Virus genome (UHGV): UHGV-0268189
Strand: one strand, 5' to 3'
Source: a virus
DNA length: 10,296 nt
Positions 1 through 10,296 of the stretch are shown here, piece by piece (position 1 is the stretch's first letter; each line of letters opens with the position of its first letter). The notes beneath the pieces are model-generated. The model was not told the DNA's origin, searched no databases, and saw only the letters and a program-made list of their open reading frames with translations. Position numbers and translations under genes: made by a program.

Positions 1-1
1 C

Positions 2-136
2 GGTGGCTGGAAGGCATTTTTGTGGAAGCCACCCTATGCATACCGGCAGATAAAGGTGACCTGTGCCGGGTGGTCTGCGCGGGTCGGGATGTTGCGCGTT
101 GAGTTCAGCGCGGAGTTTAAGCAGGTGGTGAACTGA
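2..136 (+). CDS. M: Tail protein M, C-terminal 44 codons plus stop, plus-strand copy, partial at left window edge
   Basis: Frame 2 translates to GGWKAFLWKPPYAYRQIKVTCAGWSARVGMLRVEFSAEFKQVVN*, the native M C-terminus. The same bases recur reverse-complemented at 240-362. Confidence 0.7.
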   Translation, partial: GGWKAFLWKPPYAYRQIKVTCAGWSARVGMLRVEFSAEFKQVVN

Positions 137-246
137 TGCAGGATATTCGAGAAGAAAGTCTGAGCGAGTCGGTTAAATCAGAGCAGTCACCGCGGGTGGT
201 ACTCTGGGAAATTGACCTGACGGTGCAGGGTGGTGAGCGTGCTTAA
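136..246 (+). pseudogene. L: Tail protein L, N-terminal 35 codons only, truncated at foldback junction
   Basis: ATG at 136 overlaps the M stop (TGATG). Translation MQDIREESLSESVKSEQSPRVVLWEIDLTVQGGER matches the lambda L N-terminus, then homology ends at 240 and a stop follows at 244-246. Confidence 0.7.
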
Positions 247-556
247 ACTCCGCGCTGAACTCAACGCGCAACATCCCGACCCGCGCAGACCACCCGGCAC
301 AGGTCACCTTTATCTGCCGGTATGCATAGGGTGGCTTCCACAAAAATGCCTTCCAGCCACCGTGCTCTGCCAGGAACGCTTCCAGATGCCGGGCCTCCTC
401 CCGGGTCACGGAAAGCGTCACCCTGTATGTTTTCAGGTCAGCATTCAGCCCTGCCGCCATACGCTGTGAGTACCCGTCACCAAAACGCACTTCACGCACC
501 GATGGCTGCGAGTTCACCTCCATATCCGGCTTCACTTTCCAGCGAAAGGTTTTCAT
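173..556 (-). CDS. M: Tail protein M, first 105 codons native, last 22 codons aberrant read-through across the foldback junction
   Basis: MKTFRWKVKP...RVEFSAEFK matches lambda M; after K (242-244) the ORF reads the reverse complement of the L start (HAHHPAPSGQ...) instead of QVVN*. ATG overlaps the H stop. Confidence 0.8.
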   Translation of the reverse strand: MKTFRWKVKPDMEVNSQPSVREVRFGDGYSQRMAAGLNADLKTYRVTLSVTREEARHLEAFLAEHGGWKAFLWKPPYAYRQIKVTCAGWSARVGMLRVEFSAEFKHAHHPAPSGQFPRVPPAVTALI

Positions 557-3165
557 CCACCGCTCCCTGATAACATACCGCCATCACGCAACTGCAGCCG
601 GAGTTCATCCTGTGCCCCCTTGCGGGCCATCTCATACACCGCTTTCATCAGCTGCGGCCCTGCCCGCCCGTTGGGGCCGTCGTTCTGAATCACCACGTGA
701 TTGTTCTGATTAAAATTAATGCCTTCCGCCCGCCGCATCTGCGCCGGACTTCCGGCACCGCCGACATAACCACCTTCCGCATAGCCCCGCATCAGGCGGT
801 ACAGATTGCCGACACCAATCCGGCTGGTCGCCTCCTTCGTGAAGACAAACTCCCCGCGATGAACAATCCCCGCAGGTTCATATTTACCCCCCGTCCCCGT
901 AAATCCCCCGGTCGCGAAATGGAAGTTCGCCGCCGCAGCCTGAATGGCTGTACCGCCTGACGCGGATGCGCCGCCACCAACAGCCCCGCCAATGGCGCTG
1001 CCGATACTCCCGACTATCCCCACCATCGCCTGCTTCAGAAAAATCTCTGTCAGCATGGACAGCACAGAACGGGTGAAACCACGCCAGTTCTGTTCGCTGC
1101 CGGTCAGCATCGCTGCCATATTCTGTGCAATACCGTCAAAGGTCTGCGTGGCCGCGTTTTTAACCTGCGAAAAACTGTCCGTCGCACTTTCCGCCCACTC
1201 GCCCCAGCCGGACTTCATCCCGGCCATCCAGCTTCCACGAAGCTGCTCCTCCGCAGACCAGGTGTTCTTCAGTGCAGATGTGGCCTTCGCCAGCGCAACC
1301 GGATTATCACCGTACACCTCACGAAGGCGCTGCTCTTCCGACTCCCGCTGCGCCTGACGGTCGGTGAGTCCGCGGGCTTTTGCGCTGATTGCCGCCTGCT
1401 TCGCGCTCTGCTGCTGTTCAAACCGCGCCGCCTGCTGTGCCAGCTCATTCAGCCGTTTCTGGTGTTCAATCTTGTCGCCCAGCTCAGCCAGCTGGCGTTT
1501 GTACTCCAGCGTTTCTTTCTCATGGGCCAGCAGGGATTTTTCCTGCTCAGATAACTGCCGTTTCGTGGCAGCCTCTTTCAGGACCGCATACTGACTTTCC
1601 GCCTTCCATAAATCACGGCGCTGCCGGCTGATTTTCTCATTCGCACCGCTGTGTTTTTCCAGCGTCCTGAGCTCAGCTTCAAGGGCAAGCAGAGCCTCTC
1701 TTGCCTGCTCCTCTTCCCTCTCCCCGGCAGAGCGCGTTTTCGGTGATGTATGCTTTTTACCTGTCAGCTCTTCAGCCAGACGGCTGACGGCTTCCTGCTG
1801 CCCAGGACCTTTGCTGACGCCTGTTGCACGCGAGCGGTTGATGTACCCCATTTCCCCCTGGCGTATACGCGCATCCCGTTCCGCAATGGATTTTCTCAGC
1901 GCCAGTTCATCGCGTTTTGTTTTCTCAATAAATACGCGGTTCTCTTCTGCCAGTTCACCAAACAACGCACCAACGCCGGGCACATTCTTTGTCGTTTCCC
2001 AGGCTGACTGAATAAATTCAGCCAGCGCCAGATCCCCCTGCACAAGCAGCAGCTTCACCTGTTCAACGGTTCCGGCCACCACGTCAGTGATCAGACTGAG
2101 TGCCCCCAGTGTATGATCACCTATCCATGCCCATGCGTCAGAAGTCCAGGTTTTAACATCGTCCCAGATTTTTTCCACCGGCGTGGCCGCTTTATCAAGT
2201 TGCTCCAGACGTGCATTCATGACATCCGCAAACAGGGACATCGCCTCCGTCACCGCAGCCTGTTTACCTTTCGTGCGCTCAAGCTCATCAATATGGCGTA
2301 ACTGGGAAACGCTCAGGAAGTTATACTGCTGATTCAGGGAGGCCAGCGCCTTCACCGGATCTGCTGCAATCCCTTCAAAGGCTTTTTCCACCTTCCCGGC
2401 ATCGTCCCCCACCGTCTGCAGCCATCTCTGAGAGGTTTCCCCCATGATCCGTAGCTGCCCGGCGGTATATTTCCCGCTTTCTGCCAGACGGGCCAGATTT
2501 TCTGCCGCCTGTCTGATACCACCACCGGCTTCATCGCTGATCACCCCGGCCATTTTCCACAATTCTGCCGTTGTGGTGGCAGCCGCCCCTCCGGTCAGGA
2601 TCAGTGAACGCAATAAGGCCCGGTCAGCCTGCTCTGCCTGCCAGGCGGCGGCAGCAAGCGCGGCCAGTACGGCAACCCCGCCACCTGCCGCCACACGGGC
2701 CACCGACATAAATCGTCCCAGCTCACCGGCATTCCGGGCATTTTCAGCCAGTGCATTTGCCGTATCTGACAGCGACTCCTCTGATGATTCAGAGGCATCC
2801 CTGATCCCGAGAAGTTCCTCCTTCAGCAGGGTAAGCAGGCTGAGCGGTCCACCGAATGAATCGCTGATCTGCCCCCCCTGCTGCAGCATGATAAGGAAGG
2901 GATTCTGACCACCGGCAAGCTGAGTGACAATATCCGTGAACTGTGCGGGCAGTGTGCGCATGGCAGCCTTATACTGTCCGACTGATATCCCGGCTTTTTG
3001 TGCAGCCAGCGCCTGTCGGCTCAGCCCCTGTTCAACAGTACTGGCGGTTTTTCTGGCATCCGCCTCCAGACTGGAAAAATGACGGCGTACCCGGGCCATC
3101 TGTTCATCAAACCGGGCCGCATCCAGACTCAAATCAATAACCAGATCACCCGCTGGCTGGGACAT
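553..3165 (-). CDS. H: Tail tape measure protein H (870 aa)
   Basis: N-terminus MSQPAGDLVIDLSLDAARFDEQMARVRRHF and C-terminal third (LWKAESQ...GGFTGTGGKYEPAGIVHRGEFVFTKEATSRIGVGNLYRLMRGYA) match lambda H; central region diverged. RBS GGAGGTG 6 nt upstream. Confidence 0.92.
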   Translation of the reverse strand: MSQPAGDLVIDLSLDAARFDEQMARVRRHFSSLEADARKTASTVEQGLSRQALAAQKAGISVGQYKAAMRTLPAQFTDIVTQLAGGQNPFLIMLQQGGQISDSFGGPLSLLTLLKEELLGIRDASESSEESLSDTANALAENARNAGELGRFMSVARVAAGGGVAVLAALAAAAWQAEQADRALLRSLILTGGAAATTTAELWKMAGVISDEAGGGIRQAAENLARLAESGKYTAGQLRIMGETSQRWLQTVGDDAGKVEKAFEGIAADPVKALASLNQQYNFLSVSQLRHIDELERTKGKQAAVTEAMSLFADVMNARLEQLDKAATPVEKIWDDVKTWTSDAWAWIGDHTLGALSLITDVVAGTVEQVKLLLVQGDLALAEFIQSAWETTKNVPGVGALFGELAEENRVFIEKTKRDELALRKSIAERDARIRQGEMGYINRSRATGVSKGPGQQEAVSRLAEELTGKKHTSPKTRSAGEREEEQAREALLALEAELRTLEKHSGANEKISRQRRDLWKAESQYAVLKEAATKRQLSEQEKSLLAHEKETLEYKRQLAELGDKIEHQKRLNELAQQAARFEQQQSAKQAAISAKARGLTDRQAQRESEEQRLREVYGDNPVALAKATSALKNTWSAEEQLRGSWMAGMKSGWGEWAESATDSFSQVKNAATQTFDGIAQNMAAMLTGSEQNWRGFTRSVLSMLTEIFLKQAMVGIVGSIGSAIGGAVGGGASASGGTAIQAAAANFHFATGGFTGTGGKYEPAGIVHRGEFVFTKEATSRIGVGNLYRLMRGYAEGGYVGGAGSPAQMRRAEGINFNQNNHVVIQNDGPNGRAGPQLMKAVYEMARKGAQDELRLQLRDGGMLSGSGG

Positions 3166-4008
3166 ATCTCACACCTCCGGAAATCCCCGCTGAAGCCATC
3201 ATTAATGCAACATCATCCTCGCTGACATCCACCACATCCGCAGAAGGTGAAATATCGCGCCCTCCGTCCCCTCTGAACCGGACGCCTCCGGCAACTCCTG
3301 TCGCTTTCTGCATCAGCATTTCTTCCTCGTCCGGCATCTCCGTCTGCTCTTCCTCACACGCTGGAGCAAGCAGACTGAAATCCGCCGGATGCATATCCGG
3401 ATCGCCAAAAAACAGGCTGAGTACGGCGTACATCAGCCCGGAAAAATGAGCGTCCAGTTGGGTATCCTGAAAATAATGCGTGCAGTAAAAACGTCGCCAG
3501 TCGGCATATTCGGTGGATGTCATCCCGGCAAGCATGGCGCGCCAGTCGGGTCTCCCCATCTCTCGCGCCAGTTTCAGGACAAAGTTCAGCTCGCCTTCGA
3601 ATGCTTTTTTGATGTTACCGGCTCAGTCGCTTCTGCTTTCCCGGTTTGTTCAGGATCGGCATCGTGCCGGTTATCCAGCATACCTGAAAGATAAAGCACC
3701 CGGTTCGTTGCCTGATTCAGTGCATCAGCAGGCCATCCCAGCATCACTTCACGGCGGATCTGCTGCATCTCTGTCTCCGGAGAGGCCAGAGTGCCTTTGA
3801 GGGAATGGGTATGCCATAGCGACATCGCCACAAGCAGGGATGCCGTTTCCAGATATCGCTGGTTAATGTGCACGACATCATGCTTCGTTGTCTCCTGTTG
3901 TTCTGCGTCTGAAACAAACTTTATATAATCAAACCGCTGCAGCGCAGACAATTCGGAAAGCGTGACGGACATACCGTTATATTCAAATTGTTCTGTTTTC
4001 AGAAACAT
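3146..4008 (-). CDS. T: Tail assembly chaperone G-T fusion made by programmed -1 frameshift from G into the T frame
   Basis: The -1 frame is open from 3622 down to the stop at 3146 and encodes ...AFEGELNFVLKLAREMGRPDWRAMLAGMTSTEYADWRRFY..., matching lambda T. It has no independent start upstream and overlaps the G 3' end, as in lambda G/GT. Confidence 0.8.
3172..3178 (-). promoter_or_regulatory. Ribosome binding site for H (GGAGGTG)
   Basis: Reverse complement of cacctcc, 6 nt upstream of the H ATG at 3165. Confidence 0.6.
3586..4008 (-). CDS. G: Tail assembly chaperone G (140 aa)
   Basis: MFLKTEQFEYNGMSVTLSELSALQR... matches lambda G (MFLKTESFEHNGVTVTLSELSALQR). RBS GGAGGT at 4014-4019. 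Position between V and H. Confidence 0.9.
   Translation of the reverse strand: MFLKTEQFEYNGMSVTLSELSALQRFDYIKFVSDAEQQETTKHDVVHINQRYLETASLLVAMSLWHTHSLKGTLASPETEMQQIRREVMLGWPADALNQATNRVLYLSGMLDNRHDADPEQTGKAEATEPVTSKKHSKAS
3604..3610 (-). promoter_or_regulatory. -1 ribosomal frameshift slippery heptamer A AAA AAG for G to G-T
   Basis: Minus strand ...aca tca aaa aag cat...: zero-frame codons AAA AAG preceded by A. It lies 3' of the T-frame stop (3623-3625) and 5' of the G stop (3586-3588), the only interval where a shift can yield GT. Confidence 0.7.
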
Positions 4009-4013
4009 GTATT

Positions 4014-4019
4014 ACCTCC
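4014..4019 (-). promoter_or_regulatory. Ribosome binding site for G (GGAGGT)
   Basis: Reverse complement of acctcc, 5 nt upstream of the G ATG at 4008. Confidence 0.6.
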
Positions 4020-4260
4020 GTTTACCCTGCAGCGCCCGCTTCAGTAACGGTGACTTCAGCCACTGCGGCGAACTGACCATTTCCGCTCACCACAGGGATC
4101 TGCACCTTACCTGTCGCCACGCCGTTTACCGTAATTGTCATATCTTTCACACTAATGGTGGCTTTCGACGGATCGGCGGAAACCGCTCTGAACGTCTTGT
4201 CGGTTGCACTTTCCGGCTCAAAAGAAACCGTCAGGGTGGTTGTTTTCCCTTTTGCCACCG

Positions 4261-4509
4261 TACCGGATGTCGGCGTCACCTTAATCGCACTGACCGGCGT
4301 AATTTTGCTGCGTTCTTCCGAAATCCGTTTTCCGAATGGCACGGTGGATGTGTTTCGTGGCTGGGTCAGCAGTATCGGTAAGGCCGTGACGGCGAAAGAA
4401 GTGATCACCCGCACGGTGAAAGTCACTAACGTGGGTAAACCTTCTGTAGCGGAAGAACGCAGCAAAATTACGCCGGTCAGTGCGATTAAGGTGACGCCGA
4501 CATCCGGTA
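4261..4509. repeat. Perfect 60-bp inverted repeat, arms 4261-4320 and 4450-4509 (V codons [19 protein letters not shown])
   Basis: Reverse complement of 4450-4509 equals 4261-4320 exactly by direct comparison. Confidence 0.9.
4321..4509 (+). other. V-gene internal segment (codons about 109-172) in inverted, plus orientation
   Basis: Plus-strand translation [63 protein letters not shown] is collinear with lambda V ([39 protein letters not shown]...), opposite to the rest of the gene. Confidence 0.85.
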
Positions 4510-4564
4510 AGGTGGAAAACCCAGCCACGAAACACATCCACCGTGCCATTCGGAAAACGGATTT
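4321..4564. repeat. Perfect 46-bp inverted repeat, arms 4321-4366 and 4519-4564 (V codons [15 protein letters not shown])
   Basis: Reverse complement of 4321-4366 equals 4519-4564 exactly; mismatch at both flanks. Confidence 0.9.
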
Positions 4565-4896
4565 TATAGGCCCGGACATCGCCGCTTTCAAACCAGCCTA
4601 TAAGCCCTTTCTGGCCTTCCTCTCCCGGTTTCCAGGCCAGCGTAAAACTGGTATCACCTGCAGATTTCTGCCCCTGCCCGGTCGCGGTCCAGTCCGCGTC
4701 TTCATCATCCAGGTAGTTATCATCGTAGGATTCTGCCGTCATCTCGCCCGGCGTCAGATCCTTCACCTTAGCCAGTCGCTGCCAGTCATCGTCTGACAAC
4801 GGGTTTGCATAAGCATCACCCTTGCCGTTGTAAACCCACAGAGTGGTACCGGCACCTTTTACCGGCTCAAGGGGATTTGGTGTTGCCATATCGTCC

Positions 4897-5292
4897 TCAC
4901 ATCTCGTATGTAATGGAATAAGTCAGATCTGCAGAACTCCATAACGCCATATCGTCATCACGACGATACTCATAGCCCTGCGTAACCATCGTGGTAATCA
5001 GTCCTGCCAGTGCCGGGATCGCAGTCATCGCCGGGTAAATCCGGCTTTCCATCCACTGATCAAGCTCTGAATCCGGTACCTGTGCCGGTAAAAACACCTC
5101 AATATGCAGCGTGGCCCGCCAGGTATCTGCATCCAGCTCTTCACCGGTATACTCTGCATCCGTCAGATAAACCGCGATCGCAGGAAAATCCTCTTCGTCA
5201 AAAACAACGGGGCGACCATCAAACAGCGTCGCCCCGTGTTCATGCTGCTCGAGTGCATCCAGCACTGCGGCACGAATGTCAGTGTGTTTCAT
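4897..5292 (-). CDS. U: Tail terminator protein U (131 aa)
   Basis: [28 protein letters not shown]...[11 protein letters not shown] matches lambda U ([28 protein letters not shown]...). 396 nt as in lambda; ATGA overlap with Z. Confidence 0.9.
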
Positions 5293-5864
5293 CGTTTTAT
5301 TGCAATCCTCAGTTGTTGTTTCAGCGCGTATGCCAGTTCTTTAGGCAGGCGTTCACGCCGGATACGGTCAACATTCTCATCAAATGCCTGTTTCAGTGGG
5401 GCCGCCATCGGGATTTTCACCACCTGAATGGGAAGGCGATTACGCTTTTTCCTTCCCTTGTCGTCATTGCCCTCCTCATATCTGGCCTGGGGAAGACGTT
5501 GCATAACATGCCAGCGCCCATTATTTAATCGCTGGATAAATGCCCGCTGATAACGATGCTGACCGGCTTTGAGTATGCTGTTCGGACGACGCCCCAGCAT
5601 TCTGATCCCCAGCTTAATCACAGGGAGATCACCGCGGTTAACGATAATTCTGGCATTCGGATTTCTGACCGTCGCCCGTTTCAGTCTGGACCGTTCCTTT
5701 ACCAGTTTCCGTCTCACCCTGGTTTCCCGGGCAACCTGTGACGAAGACTGATTAATCGCCGTTGTGGCCACGCGGTTAATGGTCATTGCAGAAGCAGCCG
5801 GAATGGCGTTTTTACGAACCCGGCTCAGATTATCAATCGCCTGATCAAGCCCTTTTATCGCCAT
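5289..5864 (-). CDS. Z: Tail completion protein Z (191 aa)
   Basis: MAIKGLDQAIDNLSRVRKNAIPAASAMTINRVA...[25 protein letters not shown] matches lambda Z at both termini; central part diverged. Confidence 0.88.
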   Translation of the reverse strand: MAIKGLDQAIDNLSRVRKNAIPAASAMTINRVATTAINQSSSQVARETRVRRKLVKERSRLKRATVRNPNARIIVNRGDLPVIKLGIRMLGRRPNSILKAGQHRYQRAFIQRLNNGRWHVMQRLPQARYEEGNDDKGRKKRNRLPIQVVKIPMAAPLKQAFDENVDRIRRERLPKELAYALKQQLRIAIKR

Positions 5865-5879
5865 AATTTCACCCTGCGT

Positions 5880-6233
5880 TTATCGTCGCCGGTTAACAGC
5901 GGGTGGTTGCCCACGGTTGAGCCAGAGATAACAGCTTCCACCATCATCCGGCGAAACCCGGTCTATCCAGAAGTTTTCCTCACCGATGGTCAGCGTGTCT
6001 CCACGCCGCAGTTGCCGCACATCATCAGTCCGGACAAACAGGGACGGGCTGGAGCCTTCAACGCGCACGCCCTGTCCGGCATAGCTGATATTTTCAGGGT
6101 CATCAAAAACACCACGTATTACTGCGCCGGACTGCTCACCGGATGTCATGGTGGCTGACGTTCCCATGTACCCGCGTATCGTTTCATCGGCGCGGGCAAT
6201 GGCAGCATCGAACAGGTTATCGAAATCAGCCAC
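5880..6233 (-). CDS. FII: Head-tail joining protein FII (117 aa)
   Basis: MADFDNLFDAAIARADETIRGYMGTSATMTSGEQSGAVIRGVFDDPENISYAGQGVRVEGSS... near-identical to lambda FII; 354 nt as in lambda. Confidence 0.92.
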   Translation of the reverse strand: MADFDNLFDAAIARADETIRGYMGTSATMTSGEQSGAVIRGVFDDPENISYAGQGVRVEGSSPSLFVRTDDVRQLRRGDTLTIGEENFWIDRVSPDDGGSCYLWLNRGQPPAVNRRR

Positions 6234-6244
6234 AGCGCCTCCCG

Positions 6245-6631
6245 TTATTGCATTCTGGCCAGGCCGCGCTCTGTCATTTCAGCTGCCACACCGGCAGAGA
6301 CACGGAACGCCGTTCCCGGCAGCACAAATGCCACAGTGTCATCCCGCGTGGCGTGAAGTGCATCAGTATGCAGCGTCACCAGTGCCACAACCGTGACCAG
6401 ATCAGCCGTATCAGTCACGGTATCCGGCTGCGCTGATACAACCTCATTTTCATGTCCGGTCAGCGCATTTTCCGGGCTGATAGGGGTATCCTGATCGGCA
6501 GTGTCATCAAGCTCCTCTTCCAGCTCTGCCACACGGAGCGCCAGTTCTTCTTTCGTTCCCGTCAGGCTGACATCACGGTTCAGTTGCTCACCCAGCTCCT
6601 GAAGACGGGCAATCAGTTCATCTTTCGTCAT
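6245..6631 (-). CDS. FI: DNA packaging / head completion protein FI (128 aa)
   Basis: Start taken at the internal Met of the 141-aa ORF (MTKDELIARLQELGEQLNRDVSLTGTKEELALRVAEL...), which matches the lambda FI N-terminus and has RBS GAGGAG at 6635-6640. C-terminus ...VAAEMTERGLARMQ matches lambda. Confidence 0.88.
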   Translation of the reverse strand: MTKDELIARLQELGEQLNRDVSLTGTKEELALRVAELEEELDDTADQDTPISPENALTGHENEVVSAQPDTVTDTADLVTVVALVTLHTDALHATRDDTVAFVLPGTAFRVSAGVAAEMTERGLARMQ

Positions 6632-6634
6632 GAA

Positions 6635-6640
6635 CTCCTC
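6635..6640 (-). promoter_or_regulatory. Ribosome binding site for FI (GAGGAG)
   Basis: Reverse complement of ctcctc immediately upstream of the FI ATG at 6631. Confidence 0.5.
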
Positions 6641-6653
6641 CACAGAGAGAAAA

Positions 6654-6669
6654 TGGCCCCGAAGGGCCA
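6654..6669 (-). promoter_or_regulatory. GC-rich stem-loop with UUCG tetraloop in the E-FI intergenic region
   Basis: Sense strand 5'-UGGCCC UUCG GGGCCA-3' (6-bp stem) just after the E stop, followed by UUUUCUCUCU and the FI RBS. Confidence 0.5.
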
Positions 6670-6672
6670 CGA

Positions 6673-7698
6673 TTACGCCAGTTGTACGGAAACGAACTCA
6701 TCAGGGTCAGCCAGCAGCATCAGCGGTGCTGACTGAATCATGGTGAACTCACGCGCCGGATCGCCGGTGGTCACCCAGTTTTTCGGGTAACGGGCAGAGG
6801 CGTTAATGCCTTCGCGCTGTGCATCCGCATCCTGAATGCAGCCATAGGTGCGCAGACCGCGTGCATGAGTGTTACCCAGCACCATCGTGTTGTCCGGCAG
6901 GAAGTTCTTTTTGACGCCGTTTTCCACGTACTGTCCGGAATACACGACGATGGCCACATCGCCATACATTCCCTTATAAGACACCGCTTTGCCCAGGTCT
7001 TTTACCGCTGTCTCCAGTTCGGAATGAGAGCCGCGACGGGTATCCAGCTTCTCCCTGACGGCTTTGAAGGAACGGAACAGCGCCCAGCCTTTCGGGTCAA
7101 ACACGATGATATTCACCACGCCGCTGGCGTTCAGCGCGTAGGCTTCGATATCGTCGGTCGGGTCATACGTGGACTTGTCACGCTTGCTCCACTCCGTGTC
7201 GCCGGACTGTGTGATGTTGTTCGCCGCACTGCGGCCCATATCCACCTCAACCGGATCAAAGGCTTCACCGGTCATGGTGTATTTGCCCTTAAGCACGGCA
7301 GAAACTGCCTGCATCTCTTCGACCTGGGCAATGGCCAGCTCTTCGTCACGCATGTTCTGCATGATGATGCGACGGCGGCGGTAAGCCGGGTCCGCCAGAT
7401 TCTGCGGATCTTCATCCGGCAGGCGACGCAGGGTCATCTGCGGATTCACCTCATGCTTCGGCTTGACATATCCCGGCGTAAATTCAGAGGTGGAGCCGCC
7501 ACGGGAACGGATAACCTCACCGGAAACAATCGGCGAAACGTACAGCGCCATGTTTACCAGTCCCGGAATTTGTGAGAGATAAACTTTCTCCGTGGTGAAG
7601 GGATAGCTCTCACGGAAAAAGAGACGCAGAAACAGCGGATCAAACTTAAATTTATGCTCATTTGCCGCCAGCAGCTGGGCGGTTGTGTACATCGACAT
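6673..7698 (-). CDS. E: Major capsid protein E (341 aa)
   Basis: Start at the Met giving MSMYTTAQLLAANEHKFKFDPLFLRLFFRESYPFTTEKVYLSQIPGLVNMALYVSP..., near-identical to lambda E over its full length; 1026 nt as in lambda. The ORF-track start at 7725 is an upstream in-frame extension. Confidence 0.95.
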   Translation of the reverse strand: MSMYTTAQLLAANEHKFKFDPLFLRLFFRESYPFTTEKVYLSQIPGLVNMALYVSPIVSGEVIRSRGGSTSEFTPGYVKPKHEVNPQMTLRRLPDEDPQNLADPAYRRRRIIMQNMRDEELAIAQVEEMQAVSAVLKGKYTMTGEAFDPVEVDMGRSAANNITQSGDTEWSKRDKSTYDPTDDIEAYALNASGVVNIIVFDPKGWALFRSFKAVREKLDTRRGSHSELETAVKDLGKAVSYKGMYGDVAIVVYSGQYVENGVKKNFLPDNTMVLGNTHARGLRTYGCIQDADAQREGINASARYPKNWVTTGDPAREFTMIQSAPLMLLADPDEFVSVQLA

Positions 7699-7711
7699 AA
7701 AAAAATCCCGT

Positions 7712-7736
7712 AAAAAAAGCCGCACAGGCGGCCTTT
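7712..7736 (-). terminator. Intrinsic-terminator-like hairpin in the D-E intergenic region (stem GCCGC/GCGGC, loop CUGU, then U7)
   Basis: Sense strand 5'-AAAGGCCGCCUGUGCGGCUUUUUUUACGGGAUUUUUUU-AUG(E). Plus-strand stem arms at 7719-7723 and 7728-7732, flanked by A7 at 7712-7718. Confidence 0.45.
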
Positions 7737-7753
7737 AGTGATGAAGGGTAAGG

Positions 7754-8086
7754 TTAAACGATGCTGATTGCCGTTCCGGCAAACGCGGTCCGTTTTTTCG
7801 TCTCGTCGCTGGCAGCCTCCGGCCAGAGCACATCCTCATAACGGAACGTGCCGGACTTGTAGAACGTCAGCGTGGTGCTGGTCTGGTCAGCAGCAACCGC
7901 AAGAATGCCAACGGCAGCACCGTCGGTGGTGCCATCCCACGCAACCAGCTTACGGGTGGAGGTATCCGGCATCAGCGGGGTCATTGCAGGCGCTTTCGCA
8001 CTCAATCCGCCGGGCGCGGTTGCGGTATGAGCCGGGTCACTGTTGCCCAGCGGCTGGTAATGGGTAAAGGTTTCTTTGCTCGTCAT
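7754..8086 (-). CDS. D: Head decoration protein D (110 aa)
   Basis: Start at the Met giving [110 protein letters not shown], near-identical to lambda D; 333 nt and 9-nt gap after C as in lambda. Confidence 0.95.
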
Positions 8087-8095
8087 AAACATCCC

Positions 8096-8701
8096 TTACA
8101 CTGGTGTGTTCAGCAAATCGTTAACGGCATCAGATGCCAGGTTACCTGCAGCCAGCGGTGCCGGTGCCCCCTGCATCAGACGATCCAGCGCAGTATCACT
8201 GCGCGCCTGTGCACTCTGTGGTGCTGCGGCCAGAATGCGGCGGGCCGTTTCCACGGTCATACCGGGGGTTTCTGCCAGCACGCGGGCCTGTTCTTCGCGT
8301 CCGTGAGCCTCCTCACAGTTGAGGATCCCCATAATGCGGCTGTTTTCTGCCGCAACCGCAGCGTTGATCTGCGCGTTCACGTCCGGCTGCGCCGCGCTGG
8401 CGTTTTGGCCCTCCATCGCTGGCACCACGCCAGTAACGTCAGCCTGCGAAGCAGTGGCTGAAACAGTTGTTGATTGAGTCTCTTTGGTCATTCGCCCTCC
8501 TGAGAGACGGGATTTACGTGCATCCAGTGCATCACGCATGATGGTGATCGCATCGGTACTGTTAACAAGTTCATCAGCCAGTCCGGCATCAATGGCCTCC
8601 TGACCGCTGTACACTGCAGCCTCGGTATCCAGCACAGCCTGCACGGACAGGCCGGTATATGCCGACACCTTCTGTGCAAACATCCGGCGGGTTGCATCCA
8701 T
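8096..8701 (-). CDS. nu3: Capsid scaffolding protein Nu3 (201 aa), in-frame internal start within C
   Basis: ATG at 8699-8701 in the C frame (MDATRRMFAQKVSAYTGLSVQAVLD...); same stop as C; 606 nt as in lambda Nu3. Confidence 0.8.
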   Translation of the reverse strand: MDATRRMFAQKVSAYTGLSVQAVLDTEAAVYSGQEAIDAGLADELVNSTDAITIMRDALDARKSRLSGGRMTKETQSTTVSATASQADVTGVVPAMEGQNASAAQPDVNAQINAAVAAENSRIMGILNCEEAHGREEQARVLAETPGMTVETARRILAAAPQSAQARSDTALDRLMQGAPAPLAAGNLASDAVNDLLNTPV

Positions 8702-9415
8702 CCGGGACTGCAGTGTTTCCCGGACATCATCCGGTAGATGGCTGTAGGGGTTGCCATCCACCTTATGGCTGCCGCTGTAAATCAGCGTGATTTCCACGCC
8801 CTGTTTCTCCAGCGCAGCACCGTAATTACTGTGAGCCATCATGACGCCGATGGAGCCTGTCCGGGCGGTCTGCGTGACCAGACGCCGGGAGGCGGCACTG
8901 GCAAGCAGCTGACCTGCGCTGCAGTTCATGTCATTGGCCAGCGCCCATACCGGCTTTATGTCACGCACACGGGCGATGATGTCAGCGCAGTCAAATGCCC
9001 CTGCCACCATTCCGCCGGGCGTGTCCATATCCAGCAGAATGCCGTCCACCATCGGGTCGCTGGCAGCCTGTTGCAGACGGGCGATAATGCCGTTGTAACC
9101 GGTCATCCCCGAATACGGCTGCAGCGCCCGCGTCCGGCAGACCAGCGTGCCGGAAACCGGCAGCACGGCGATGCCGTTCATGACCTGATAACTGCGGGCC
9201 TGTCGTGGTACGTCATCATTAACGGATAACGCCAGCTTCGCGGGTGCCTCTCCGGCAGTCAGGCTGTCACCGGACACCGCATCCGTCAGGCGGCTGATCC
9301 CAAGCTGGCCTGCAAGCGCACAAAAGAAAACCCGCGCATAGGCGGGTTCAAGCATAAGCGGCTCATTAAAGGCCATGCTGGCAATATGCGGGAGATTACG
9401 CAGCTCTGCTGTCAC
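8096..9415 (-). CDS. C: Head protease / minor capsid protein C (439 aa, GTG start)
   Basis: From GTG at 9413-9415 (RBS GAGGAGGAG at 9420-9428) the frame gives (M)TAELRNLPHIASMAFNEPLMLEPAYARVFFCALAGQLGIS...NDLLNTPV, near-identical to lambda C; 1320 nt; 20-nt overlap with the B 3' end as in lambda. Confidence 0.93.
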   Translation of the reverse strand: MTAELRNLPHIASMAFNEPLMLEPAYARVFFCALAGQLGISRLTDAVSGDSLTAGEAPAKLALSVNDDVPRQARSYQVMNGIAVLPVSGTLVCRTRALQPYSGMTGYNGIIARLQQAASDPMVDGILLDMDTPGGMVAGAFDCADIIARVRDIKPVWALANDMNCSAGQLLASAASRRLVTQTARTGSIGVMMAHSNYGAALEKQGVEITLIYSGSHKVDGNPYSHLPDDVRETLQSRMDATRRMFAQKVSAYTGLSVQAVLDTEAAVYSGQEAIDAGLADELVNSTDAITIMRDALDARKSRLSGGRMTKETQSTTVSATASQADVTGVVPAMEGQNASAAQPDVNAQINAAVAAENSRIMGILNCEEAHGREEQARVLAETPGMTVETARRILAAAPQSAQARSDTALDRLMQGAPAPLAAGNLASDAVNDLLNTPV

Positions 9416-10155
9416 TCTTCTCCTCCTCTGTTGATTGTCGCAGTCCGGATTCAAATGCCGCAGCCGCCCAGGCGGGCGGTTTAAGACCGGCTGCACGGCG
9501 CTCCATCGTTTCACGGACCTGCTGGGCAAAAATTTCCTGATAGTCGTCACCGCGTTTTGCGCACTCTTTCTCGTAGGTACTCAGTCCGGCTTCTATCAGC
9601 ATCACCGCTTCCTGAACTTCTTTCAGACCATCGATGGCCATACGACCGGAGCCTATCCAGTCACAGTTCCCCCAGGCGCTGCGGGCTTCCTGAAAGCTGA
9701 AACGCGCTTTTGAAGGTAACGTCACCACGCGGCGAACGATGGCCTCTTCCAGCCAGCACAGAAACATCTGGCTCGCCTGACGGGATGCGACGAATTTTCG
9801 CCGCCCCATAAAGTACGCCCACGACTCGTTCGCACTGGCCCGTGCCGTGGAATAGCTCATCTGGGCGTAATTCCGGGAAAGCTGCTCATACGAGACACCC
9901 AGCCCGGCAGCGATATACCGCAACAGTGACTGCTCAAACACGGAGTAGCCGTTATCCGTATCCTGAGCCGTCTGCAGGTTCAGTGAGTCACCCGGCATCA
10001 GGTGCGGCACTTTTGCGCCTCCCAGCCGAACCGGTGCTGCGGCGTAATACGCGGCAATTTCACCAATCCAGCCGGTCAGCTTGTCCCGCTGCTCCTGACT
10101 GTTCGCGCCCAGAATAAAATCCATCGCTGACTGCGTATCCAGCTCACTCTCAATG
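9396..10155 (-). CDS. B: Portal protein B, C-terminal ~253 codons only; upstream part replaced by foldback junction
   Basis: Minus frame reads IESELDTQSAMDFILGANSQEQRDKLTGWIGEIAAYYAAAPVRLGG...STEEEKSDSRAA*, matching the lambda B C-terminal half. Upstream of about 10155 the frame reads unrelated residues and hits a stop at 10194-10196. The ORF-track start at 10124 is an internal Met. Confidence 0.85.
9420..9428 (-). promoter_or_regulatory. Ribosome binding site for C (GAGGAGGAG)
   Basis: Reverse complement of ctcctcctc, 4 nt upstream of the GTG at 9415. Confidence 0.6.
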
Positions 10156-10296
10156 CCCGTGGAGGACGGGCAGACCCGCGGTGCAAATGTGTTTTACAGC
10201 GTGATGGAGCAGATGAAGATGCTCGACACGCTGCAGAACACGCAGCTGCAGAGCGCCATTGTGAAGGCGATGTATGCCGCCACCATTGAGAGTGAG
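10143..10296. repeat. Inverted repeat, arms 10143-10155 and 10284-10296 (right arm cut by window edge), spacer 128 bp
   Basis: Reverse complement of 10284-10296 (cattgagagtgag) equals 10143-10155; mismatch at 10156/10283. Confidence 0.7.
10150..10296 (+). CDS. B: Portal protein B internal fragment in plus orientation, partial, runs off right window edge
   Basis: Plus frame from 10150: SMPVEDGQTRGANVFYSVMEQMKMLDTLQNTQLQSAIVKAMYAATIESE, the B segment immediately N-terminal of IESELDTQSAMDF in lambda. Confidence 0.8.

Follow-up and report, generated by a model that had tools for sequence, protein, structure and literature searches.

The window, which is the whole stretch of DNA analysed here (10,296 nt of UHGV virus genome UHGV-0268189), is composed of five overlapping pieces of a lambda-like E. 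coli prophage head-and-tail cluster. Mapping to a collinear prophage reference (L002) shows that the pieces alternate in orientation. Four fold-back junctions connect them, and the offsets are 116, 129, 144–154 and 128 nt. This arrangement is very probably an artefact and not a faithful copy of natural DNA. The scrambling most likely arose during sequence production, not in a living cell, and its likeliest cause is the homology-free joining of pieces that had been built separately.

Five pieces of a prophage cluster

The first piece, Segment A (1–239, plus strand), is 100% identical to L002 12804–13042. It contains the 3' end of M (1–136) and the first ~35 codons of L (136–239). Segment B (240–4320, minus strand; 4081 nt) is 100% identical to L002 12926→8846. 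It contains M without its last 13 nt (240–556), the tape measure gene H (553–3165), T (3146–3559), G (3586–4008) with the slippery site GGGAAAG at 3636–3642, and the C-terminal part of V (4022–4320), all on the minus strand. Segment C (4321–4519, plus strand) is the middle of V, inverted. It follows L002 8717–8906 perfectly and then ends in a deviating 10-nt tail.

Segment D (4519–10155, minus strand; 5637 nt) has one mismatch to L002 8762→3126. The mismatch, at window position 9615, is synonymous and is a private SNP. On the minus strand of this segment are the N-terminal part of V (4519–4889), U (4897–5292), Z (5289–5864), FII (5880–6233), FI (6245–6631), the major capsid gene E (6673–7698), the decoration gene D (7754–8086), the S49 protease-scaffold gene C/Nu3 (8096–9415), and the C-terminal part of the portal gene B (9396–10155). 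Segment E (10156–10296, plus strand; 141 nt) is the middle of the portal gene, inverted and 100% identical to L002 2998–3138, and is cut by the window edge.

These assignments agree with the Pfam matches. Among these are Phage_portal_2, Peptidase_S49, HDPD, Phage_cap_E, Packaging_FI, and Phage_attach. The others are Minor_tail_Z, Phage_tail_U, Phage_TTP_12, Phage_TAC_2, Phage_tail_T, TMP_2, Phage_min_tail, and Phage_tail_L. The segments are 99.98–100% identical to annotated prophages, which identifies the proteins as lambda-type morphogenesis proteins. The gene names proposed in the sequence-only reading are correct. The portal gene, V, M, and L are all disrupted in the window, being truncated or fused to nonsense tails.

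The inverted arms are seen directly in the window. Positions 1–123 are the reverse complement of 240–362 (123 nt, 100%), with the single-copy spacer 124–239 (116 nt) between them. The arms 4251–4320 and 4450–4519 are 70 nt long and 97% complementary, and they are perfect over 60 nt (4261–4320 and 4450–4509). The arms 4321–4366 and 4519–4564 are 46 nt, 100% complementary and 152 nt apart. The last pair, 10143–10155 and 10284–10296, is 13 nt, 100% complementary and 128 nt apart. The remaining perfect inverted pairs in the window (I13, I16, and I20) are 12–14 nt at most, so the 123-, 60/70- and 46-nt repeats are far above chance. The 13-nt pair alone is at chance level. It is accepted because 10156–10296 aligns at 100% to the strand opposite to that of its neighbour. 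The alternating pieces with four fold-backs, and perfect arms of 123, 60, 46 and at least 13 bp, had already been described from the sequence alone. The computed inverted repeats and the reference mapping bear out both descriptions, with the correction that the last plus-strand segment begins at 10156, not at 10150.

Adjoining pieces overlap in the parent by 46, 61–71, at least 123, and at least 13 nt. In the central event, a 200-bp inverted piece spans an 83-bp gap and overlaps its two flanks by 46 and 61–71 bp. Every base of the window is accounted for by the prophage reference, and no adapter, filler or other foreign DNA is seen at the joins.

The single-strand collinear order from portal to L is not present in the window as written and is restored only by undoing the four fold-backs. 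The reconstruction takes, in this order, window 10156–10283, the reverse complement of 4519–10155, 4367–4449, the reverse complement of 240–4320, and 124–239. This gives 10,045 nt with the order B-C/Nu3-D-E-FI-FII-Z-U-V-G-T-H-M-L, one mismatch to L002, and a one-base difference from the prophage in E. coli GCA_900449035.1. V (250 aa) and M (109 aa) now encode exactly the reference proteins. The uninterrupted cluster with intact M and V anticipated in the sequence-only reading is therefore obtained, and alignment to related prophages, which it had proposed as a check, gave the same collinear order. In gene order, Pfam content and sequence, the restored window matches the lambdoid prophage cluster of GCA_900449035.1 (UGBV01000003.1) and NZ_AP045820.1. 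Unlike that cluster, the window is cut at four points, its strands alternate, and four of its genes (portal, V, M, and L) are broken. Several independent assemblies match Segments A, B, and E at 100% and Segment D with a difference of one base, and the same cluster is collinear and 99.99–100% identical in many E. coli genomes.

Blunt junctions without counterparts

At J1 (239/240), L002 13042 is joined head-to-head to 12926, a jump of 116 nt with 0 nt of microhomology. At J2 (4320/4321), L002 8846 is joined tail-to-tail to 8717 (129 nt, 0 nt of microhomology). At J4 (10155/10156), L002 3126 is joined tail-to-tail to 2998 (128 nt, 0 nt of microhomology). J3 (4509–4520) joins L002 8906/8916 head-to-head to 8762, with a jump of 144–154 nt and at most 1 nt of microhomology. 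J3 is a fold-back as originally described, but not a clean one. Segment C ends in the 10 nt AGGTGGAAAA (4510–4519), and the copy of the same DNA in Segment B is CGGTGGCAAAA. The tail differs from the Segment B copy and from the reference by two C>A changes, one of which is a natural allele elsewhere. The size of the J3 jump depends on how the bases of this tail are assigned.

A templated insertion at J3 was considered, as the 11-mer AAGGTGGAAAA is also present in H (L002 10772). Two local substitutions explain the tail equally well. An 8-nt direct repeat, GGTGGTGA, is present at both ends of the J1 spacer, and it loses significance when the number of junctions (four) and of repeat types (two) is allowed for.

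Beyond chance level, the parent has neither inverted nor direct repeats at the breakpoints. The best inverted matches near paired breakpoints (within 15 or 25 nt on either side) are 3–6 nt, which equals the random expectation. The breaks share no restriction or nicking site, Cas9 PAM or Chi, and no full Chi is present in the region. GGTGG adjoins three of the eight broken ends. Its placement relative to the retained end presumably does not fit RecBCD-Chi processing.

The fold-back junctions are absent from 5,426 complete E. coli genomes. A 400-nt query across J2 and J3 was covered by none of the 3,521 matching E. coli records. With the whole window as query, the phage, plasmid, and E. coli genome collections gave only collinear relatives, and a comparable fold-back was found in 0 of 91 related loci. 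The exact J2 string is absent from IMG/VR, JGI metagenome and GTDB genome contigs, the J1 string from JGI metagenome contigs, and the J4 string from GTDB genome contigs. For the junction-specific ORFs (an M fusion of 127 aa, a V fusion of 202 aa, and an ORF of 189 aa), no exact record was found. Since the pieces match widespread collinear prophages at 100% and the junctions occur in no public genome searched, the earlier suggestion that the events are recent or artefactual stands.

Origin of the fold-backs

Several facts indicate an artefact. Undoing the fold-backs leaves 10,045 nt with one mismatch and intact V and M. Four gene-disrupting events fall within 10 kb without any sequence decay. 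The junctions are absent everywhere searched. They show 0, 0, at most 1, and 0 nt of microhomology, without repeats or unaccounted bases. As the joins lack sequence homology, separately built pieces are their likeliest source, and template switching by a polymerase is less likely.

It can be supposed that a normal lambda-like head-tail cluster was first represented as five overlapping pieces. The pieces would then have been joined blunt, end to end, with the short Segments A, C, and E flipped relative to the long Segments B and D. The responsible step was likely assembly, scaffolding, gap filling or later processing, in which short pieces could be mis-oriented. A ligation-type event during library construction would be a less likely step. 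The difference between the tail of Segment C and its copy in Segment B is expected if Segment C was an independently built consensus or read and not a copy from the same molecule. The narrow range of the offsets, 116–154 nt, suggests a physical or algorithmic ruler of some kind, and this counts against the joining of separate pieces.

The positions of the breakpoints give some support to an artefact made by homology-free joining. L002 3126, 8762, 8916, and 12926 are 13–17 nt from draft contig ends at 3111, 8777, 8929, and 12943. These ends come from four unrelated draft assemblies and are among 29 contig ends. Thus 4 of 29 lie within 20 nt of breakpoints where about 1 is expected (p ~0.02), a post hoc result of modest significance. 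Further contig ends are at 3155/3156 in three NCBI drafts, and mosaic boundaries are at 3106–3114. Overall, the breakpoints are 13–30 nt from contig ends of independent drafts of related prophages. The proximity to contig ends and mosaic boundaries suggests that the breaks lie at forks of lambdoid prophage assembly graphs. Drafts with the identical prophage (L008–L011) show no contig break at these breakpoints.

Two specific assembly errors were tried and rejected. A simple de Bruijn graph hairpin would need a natural inverted repeat; the parent has none, and the overlaps fit no single k. Collapsed-repeat pieces bounded by paralogue differences do not fit either, as none of the positions 2998, 8717, 8906 and 13042 is the end of an exact-match block shared by L002 and any of 90 related loci.

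An artefact of a different step, a chimera made by a strand-displacing polymerase (phi29 in MDA, or a repair or nick-translation polymerase in library preparation), is the main alternative, and we regard it as a rather doubtful one. Here, the nascent 3' end would repeatedly leave its template and prime on the displaced complementary strand 116–154 nt away, and the chimeric molecule would then be sequenced or assembled from few effective templates. MDA chimeras are inverted in 85–91% of cases; the inverted ones form within one molecule, mostly over short distances, and can arise repeatedly along a long molecule (Lasken & Stockwell 2007; PMC9984789). The window resembles them in these respects: all four junctions connect inverted neighbours less than 10 kb apart, several fall within 10 kb, and the alternating walk through segments of 0.2–5.6 kb is like that of multi-chimeric MDA products. 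The base changes beside J3 and the one private SNP would also suit a consensus of few molecules. The window differs from them in the absence of priming complementarity. At least 2 bp of complementarity is present in 93.5% of MDA inverted chimeras less than 10 kb apart (Lasken & Stockwell 2007), typically 5–8 nt, and the overlap peaks at ~7 nt (PMC9984789). None of the four junctions here reaches 2 bp; if they are independent, the probability of 0, 0, at most 1, and 0 nt is ~0.065^4 = 2e-5. The distance preferences of MDA chimeras, ~80 and 250–300 nt (PMC9984789), also differ from the tight and uniform offsets here, and this model offers no reason for breakpoints near contig-break or mosaic positions. 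The single mechanism put forward in the sequence-only reading, polymerase template switching in vivo or during strand-displacement amplification, is hence not well supported: three joins are blunt, the fourth has at most 1 nt of microhomology, and inverted repeats are missing.

A genuine, very recent rearrangement of the prophage in vivo, by homology-independent fold-backs or by inversions flanked by inverted duplications, is improbable. It could have occurred by a U-turn of the replication fork that joins leading and lagging strands, or by staggered double nicks, fill-in, and end joining. The central event has the geometry of staggered breaks or two template switches, as both flanks of the inverted piece are duplicated. 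Similar geometry is known in eukaryotes from staggered-break inversions, DUP-TRP/INV-DUP and ODIRA-type switches, and the alternation of head-to-head and tail-to-tail junctions is a further likeness. The altered bases at J3 look like the product of error-prone synthesis close to a switch, and GGTGG at the broken ends has been counted in the same direction. E. coli tolerates inverted repeats with spacers longer than 100 bp, but not perfect long palindromes, and this also fits a cellular origin. Against it, four junctions within 10 kb each break a structural gene (portal B, V, or M and L), the arms match perfectly, and the junctions are found in none of the 5,426 complete genomes or the other collections searched. 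E. coli has no classical NHEJ. For alternative end joining and template switching it normally relies on microhomology, which the junctions do not have. ODIRA-type events require a short interrupted inverted repeat in the parent for each junction, and the reference has no such repeats. The window differs from them also as a bacterial prophage with three close events and no sign of presence in cells. Repeated homology-independent inverted duplications at a fixed ~130 bp offset in living E. coli, with fork U-turns, or paired nicks ~130 bp apart that are then filled in and end-joined, as possible routes, are more improbable still.

The window resembles long-read fold-back reads in that the sequence turns and re-reads the opposite strand. 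Missed-adapter SMRTbell fold-backs turn at the molecule end and have no genomic spacer. Nanopore follow-on fold-back reads also turn at the molecule end, with ~35 nt of adapter at the junction. By contrast, the window has genomic spacers of 116–154 nt, no foreign bases, and internal segments of unequal length (4081, 199, and 5637 nt). A multi-pass SMRTbell read is rejected on the unequal lengths and the lack of adapter. A chimera from long-read library preparation, another source proposed earlier, therefore fits poorly.

Some lambdoid and P1/Mu-type phages have invertible segments, but a programmed inversion by a Hin/Gin/Pin-type recombinase or a transposable element is effectively refuted, with a negligible probability, because inverted crossover sites are missing from the breakpoints of the collinear reference; besides, such inversion leaves flanks unduplicated (here 46–123 nt are duplicated), the sites are inside portal, V, and M/L and not in tail-fibre genes, and no recombinase or IS sequence is present in a window that maps entirely to prophage.

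Consequences for sequence collections

If the fold-backs were real, they would represent a homology-independent process of inversion and duplication not yet known in E. coli, for which only the geometry speaks here. Bacteria would then have their own counterpart of breakage-fusion-bridge or ODIRA-type rearrangement, with an unexplained molecular ruler.

If they are an artefact, as is far more probable, the window is a clear example of a common prophage scrambled by blunt, homology-free fold-back joins in public-style sequence. A gene caller applied to such sequence would give portal, V, and M/L genes that are cut short, together with spurious fusion ORFs. As a signature for filtering, one could use perfect inverted arms around a genomic spacer of ~130 nt, joined without microhomology, in a sequence whose parent is collinear wherever else it occurs.

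Pieces and collinear parent

By BLAST against a collinear E. coli prophage, the window is divided into five pieces of alternating strand, with every base used. Closer references (L002, L006, and L007) were then aligned to it; L002 is the collinear prophage of E. coli GCA_900449035.1. Piece A (window 1–239, plus) corresponds to L002 12804–13042 and piece B (240–4320, minus) to 12926→8846, both at 100% identity. Piece C (4321–4519, plus) corresponds to 8717–8916 and is perfect up to 8906. Piece D (4519–10155, minus) corresponds to 8762→3126 with 1 mismatch, and piece E (10156–10296, plus) to 2998–3138 at 100%.

Four inverted pairs emerge from the repeat search. Positions 1–123 and 240–362 are 100% complementary over 123 nt, with 116 nt between the arms. 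Positions 4251–4320 and 4450–4519 match over 70 nt at 97%, perfectly over 60 nt (4261–4320 and 4450–4509). Positions 4321–4366 and 4519–4564 (46 nt, 100%) are separated by 152 nt, and 10143–10155 and 10284–10296 (13 nt, 100%) by 128 nt. The first three are far above chance, because the remaining perfect inverted pairs in the window are all 12–14 nt; the fourth could be considered convincing solely through the reference mapping. The fold-back structure described in the sequence-only reading is confirmed by these pairs and by the five pieces.

Reference annotation and Pfam identify portal, S49 protease/scaffold, decoration protein, major capsid, FI, FII, Z, U, V, G, T, tape measure H, M, and L, in agreement with the gene names assigned earlier. 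The restitched single-copy parts amount to 10,045 nt, of which one base differs from L002, and they encode V (250 aa) and M (109 aa) without any change from the reference proteins. The uninterrupted B-to-L cluster with intact V and M, which was proposed to appear after undoing the fold-backs, is thus recovered. The sole mismatch (window 9615, portal codon 461, GTA>GTT) is synonymous, differs from all references, and is seen in none of the complete E. coli genome records that match (0 of 3,184). Either a private SNP or an error in the consensus could account for it. The collinear cluster is widespread: in 494 complete E. coli genomes, at least 80% of the query is matched in collinear order within a single place, and the index of the contig collection lists the exact H protein in 266 blocks. 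Beneath the fold-backs, the locus is a lambdoid morphogenesis cluster that is both ordinary and previously known. The lambda-type G/GT −1 frameshift heptamer GGGAAAG, expected in this lambda-type family, is present near the end of G (window 3636–3642, minus).

In the window arrangement, portal is interrupted at L002 3126, V is broken into three parts, M lacks its final 13 nt and continues into antisense as a 127-aa fusion, and L ends after ~35 codons. Phage assembly is impossible from the arrangement as written. The genes are disrupted and the sequence shows no decay; therefore, the events are extremely recent or not biological, which upholds the earlier view of them as recent or artefactual.

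Junction anatomy

The two ends joined at a junction are 116 nt apart in L002 at J1 (window 239/240), 129 nt at J2 (4320/4321), 144–154 nt at J3 (4509–4520), and 128 nt at J4 (10155/10156). Set against the reference as it continues on either side, J1, J2, and J4 have 0 nt of microhomology and J3 has at most 1 nt. No adapter, vector, or filler is seen at the junctions, and around the paired breakpoints neither inverted nor direct repeats are above random expectation. The 8-mer GGTGGTGA opens the J1 spacer (window 124–131) and recurs at 229–236, 3 nt before the spacer end; this direct repeat has p ~0.016 before correction for eight tests and is not significant after it.

The only junction irregularity is the tail of piece C (window 4510–4519), AGGTGGAAAA versus CGGTGGCAAAA in the piece B copy and L002. 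It carries two C>A changes relative to the piece B copy of the same DNA, and NZ_CM149869 has one of them (L002 8912A) as a natural V allele. The 11-mer AAGGTGGAAAA also has an exact match within H, as the reverse complement of window 2384–2394. GGTGG is directly beyond the break at three of the eight broken ends, L002 12926, 8906, and 3126 (window 240, 4509, and 10155), with p ~1e-5 uncorrected and ~1e-3 to 1e-2 after a rough post hoc correction for motif choice. Chi/RecBCD processing was rejected for this motif as the position does not fit, and no mechanism was found.

Origin of the arrangement

A whole-window search of 50,697 phage records, 5,426 complete E. coli genomes, and 72,556 plasmids returned collinear matches only. 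None of 3,521 records matching a 400-nt query that spans J2 and J3 covers 80% or more of it. The exact J2 string is absent from IMG/VR, JGI metagenome contigs, and GTDB genome contigs, the J1 string from metagenome contigs, and the J4 string from genome contigs. Junction-specific ORFs have no match on record. In a screen of 91 related loci for inverted repeats 30 nt or longer within 1 kb, the window alone has them. The arrangement is very probably an artefact of sequence production, of whatever kind.

Draft contig ends at L002 3111, 8777, 8929, and 12943, from four unrelated assemblies, are 13–17 nt outside the breakpoints 3126, 8762, 8916, and 12926. Among 29 contig ends mapped to the region, ~1 is expected within 20 nt of the breakpoints (p ~0.02, post hoc). 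In portal, homology to L002 begins at a mosaic boundary at 3106 in two loci or 3114 in a third, and contigs end at 3111 in L039 (IMGVR_UViG_2724678986_000004) and at 3155/3156 in three NCBI drafts. L002 3106–3156 (equivalent to window ~10125–10175) is a hot spot of both. Since contig ends and mosaic boundaries lie near the breakpoints, the breaks appear to be at forks of lambdoid-prophage assembly graphs. Separately built pieces that were mis-joined would show this, which hints at an assembly-level origin.

Such pieces would have been joined without homology during assembly, scaffolding, post-processing, or ligation, and this form of the artefact is somewhat more likely than not. The blunt joins, the overlap of neighbouring pieces like adjacent contigs, the flipping of all three short pieces, and the divergent tail of piece C are consistent with it. 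On the other hand, no one value of k accounts for the overlaps of 46, 61–71, at least 123, and at least 13 nt, the piece boundaries are not where exact-match blocks with related prophages stop, and drafts of the identical prophage are unbroken at these sites.

Polymerase template switching, in vivo or in multiple displacement amplification (MDA), depends on pairing between the 3' end and the new template. Among MDA inverted chimeras less than 10 kb apart, 93.5% have at least 2 bp of complementarity (Lasken & Stockwell 2007), and according to a review, overlaps peak at close to 7 nt and distances of about 80 and 250–300 nt are preferred (PMC9984789). Four junctions of near-zero overlap are expected at ~2e-5 if independent, the tight range of 116–154 nt is off the reported peaks, and random polymerase jumps do not predict breaks at assembly-graph forks. 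Template switching, one of the options put forward earlier for a single mechanism, is thus disfavoured by both microhomology and distance. A polymerase chimera, as one kind of production artefact, is rather unlikely, and the biological reading, a fold-back rearrangement that truly took place in vivo, lacks support and is highly improbable.

ODIRA-type switching requires short inverted repeats, which are absent from the parent breakpoints; site-specific inversion is excluded, as the parent lacks crossover repeats and the window carries duplicated flanks. In long-read fold-back artefacts, the turn is at the end of a molecule; missed-adapter SMRTbell reads lack a spacer, and nanopore follow-on fold-back reads carry ~35 nt of adapter, so that the genomic spacers in the window fit neither type.

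Related drafts

L039 is collinear, contains no fold-backs, and at 10,298 nt (L002 3111–13400, ~95% identity) is nearly the size of the window; draft contigs of this cluster therefore typically measure ~10 kb. Two other drafts contain the same prophage with internal deletions. GCA_040972525.1 lacks L002 7923–8802 (the end of Z, U, and the start of V), and GCA_017687015.1 lacks ~7378–9275, which leaves FII and G fused in a 210-aa ORF. The two drafts may represent truly defective prophages or collapses in assembly.
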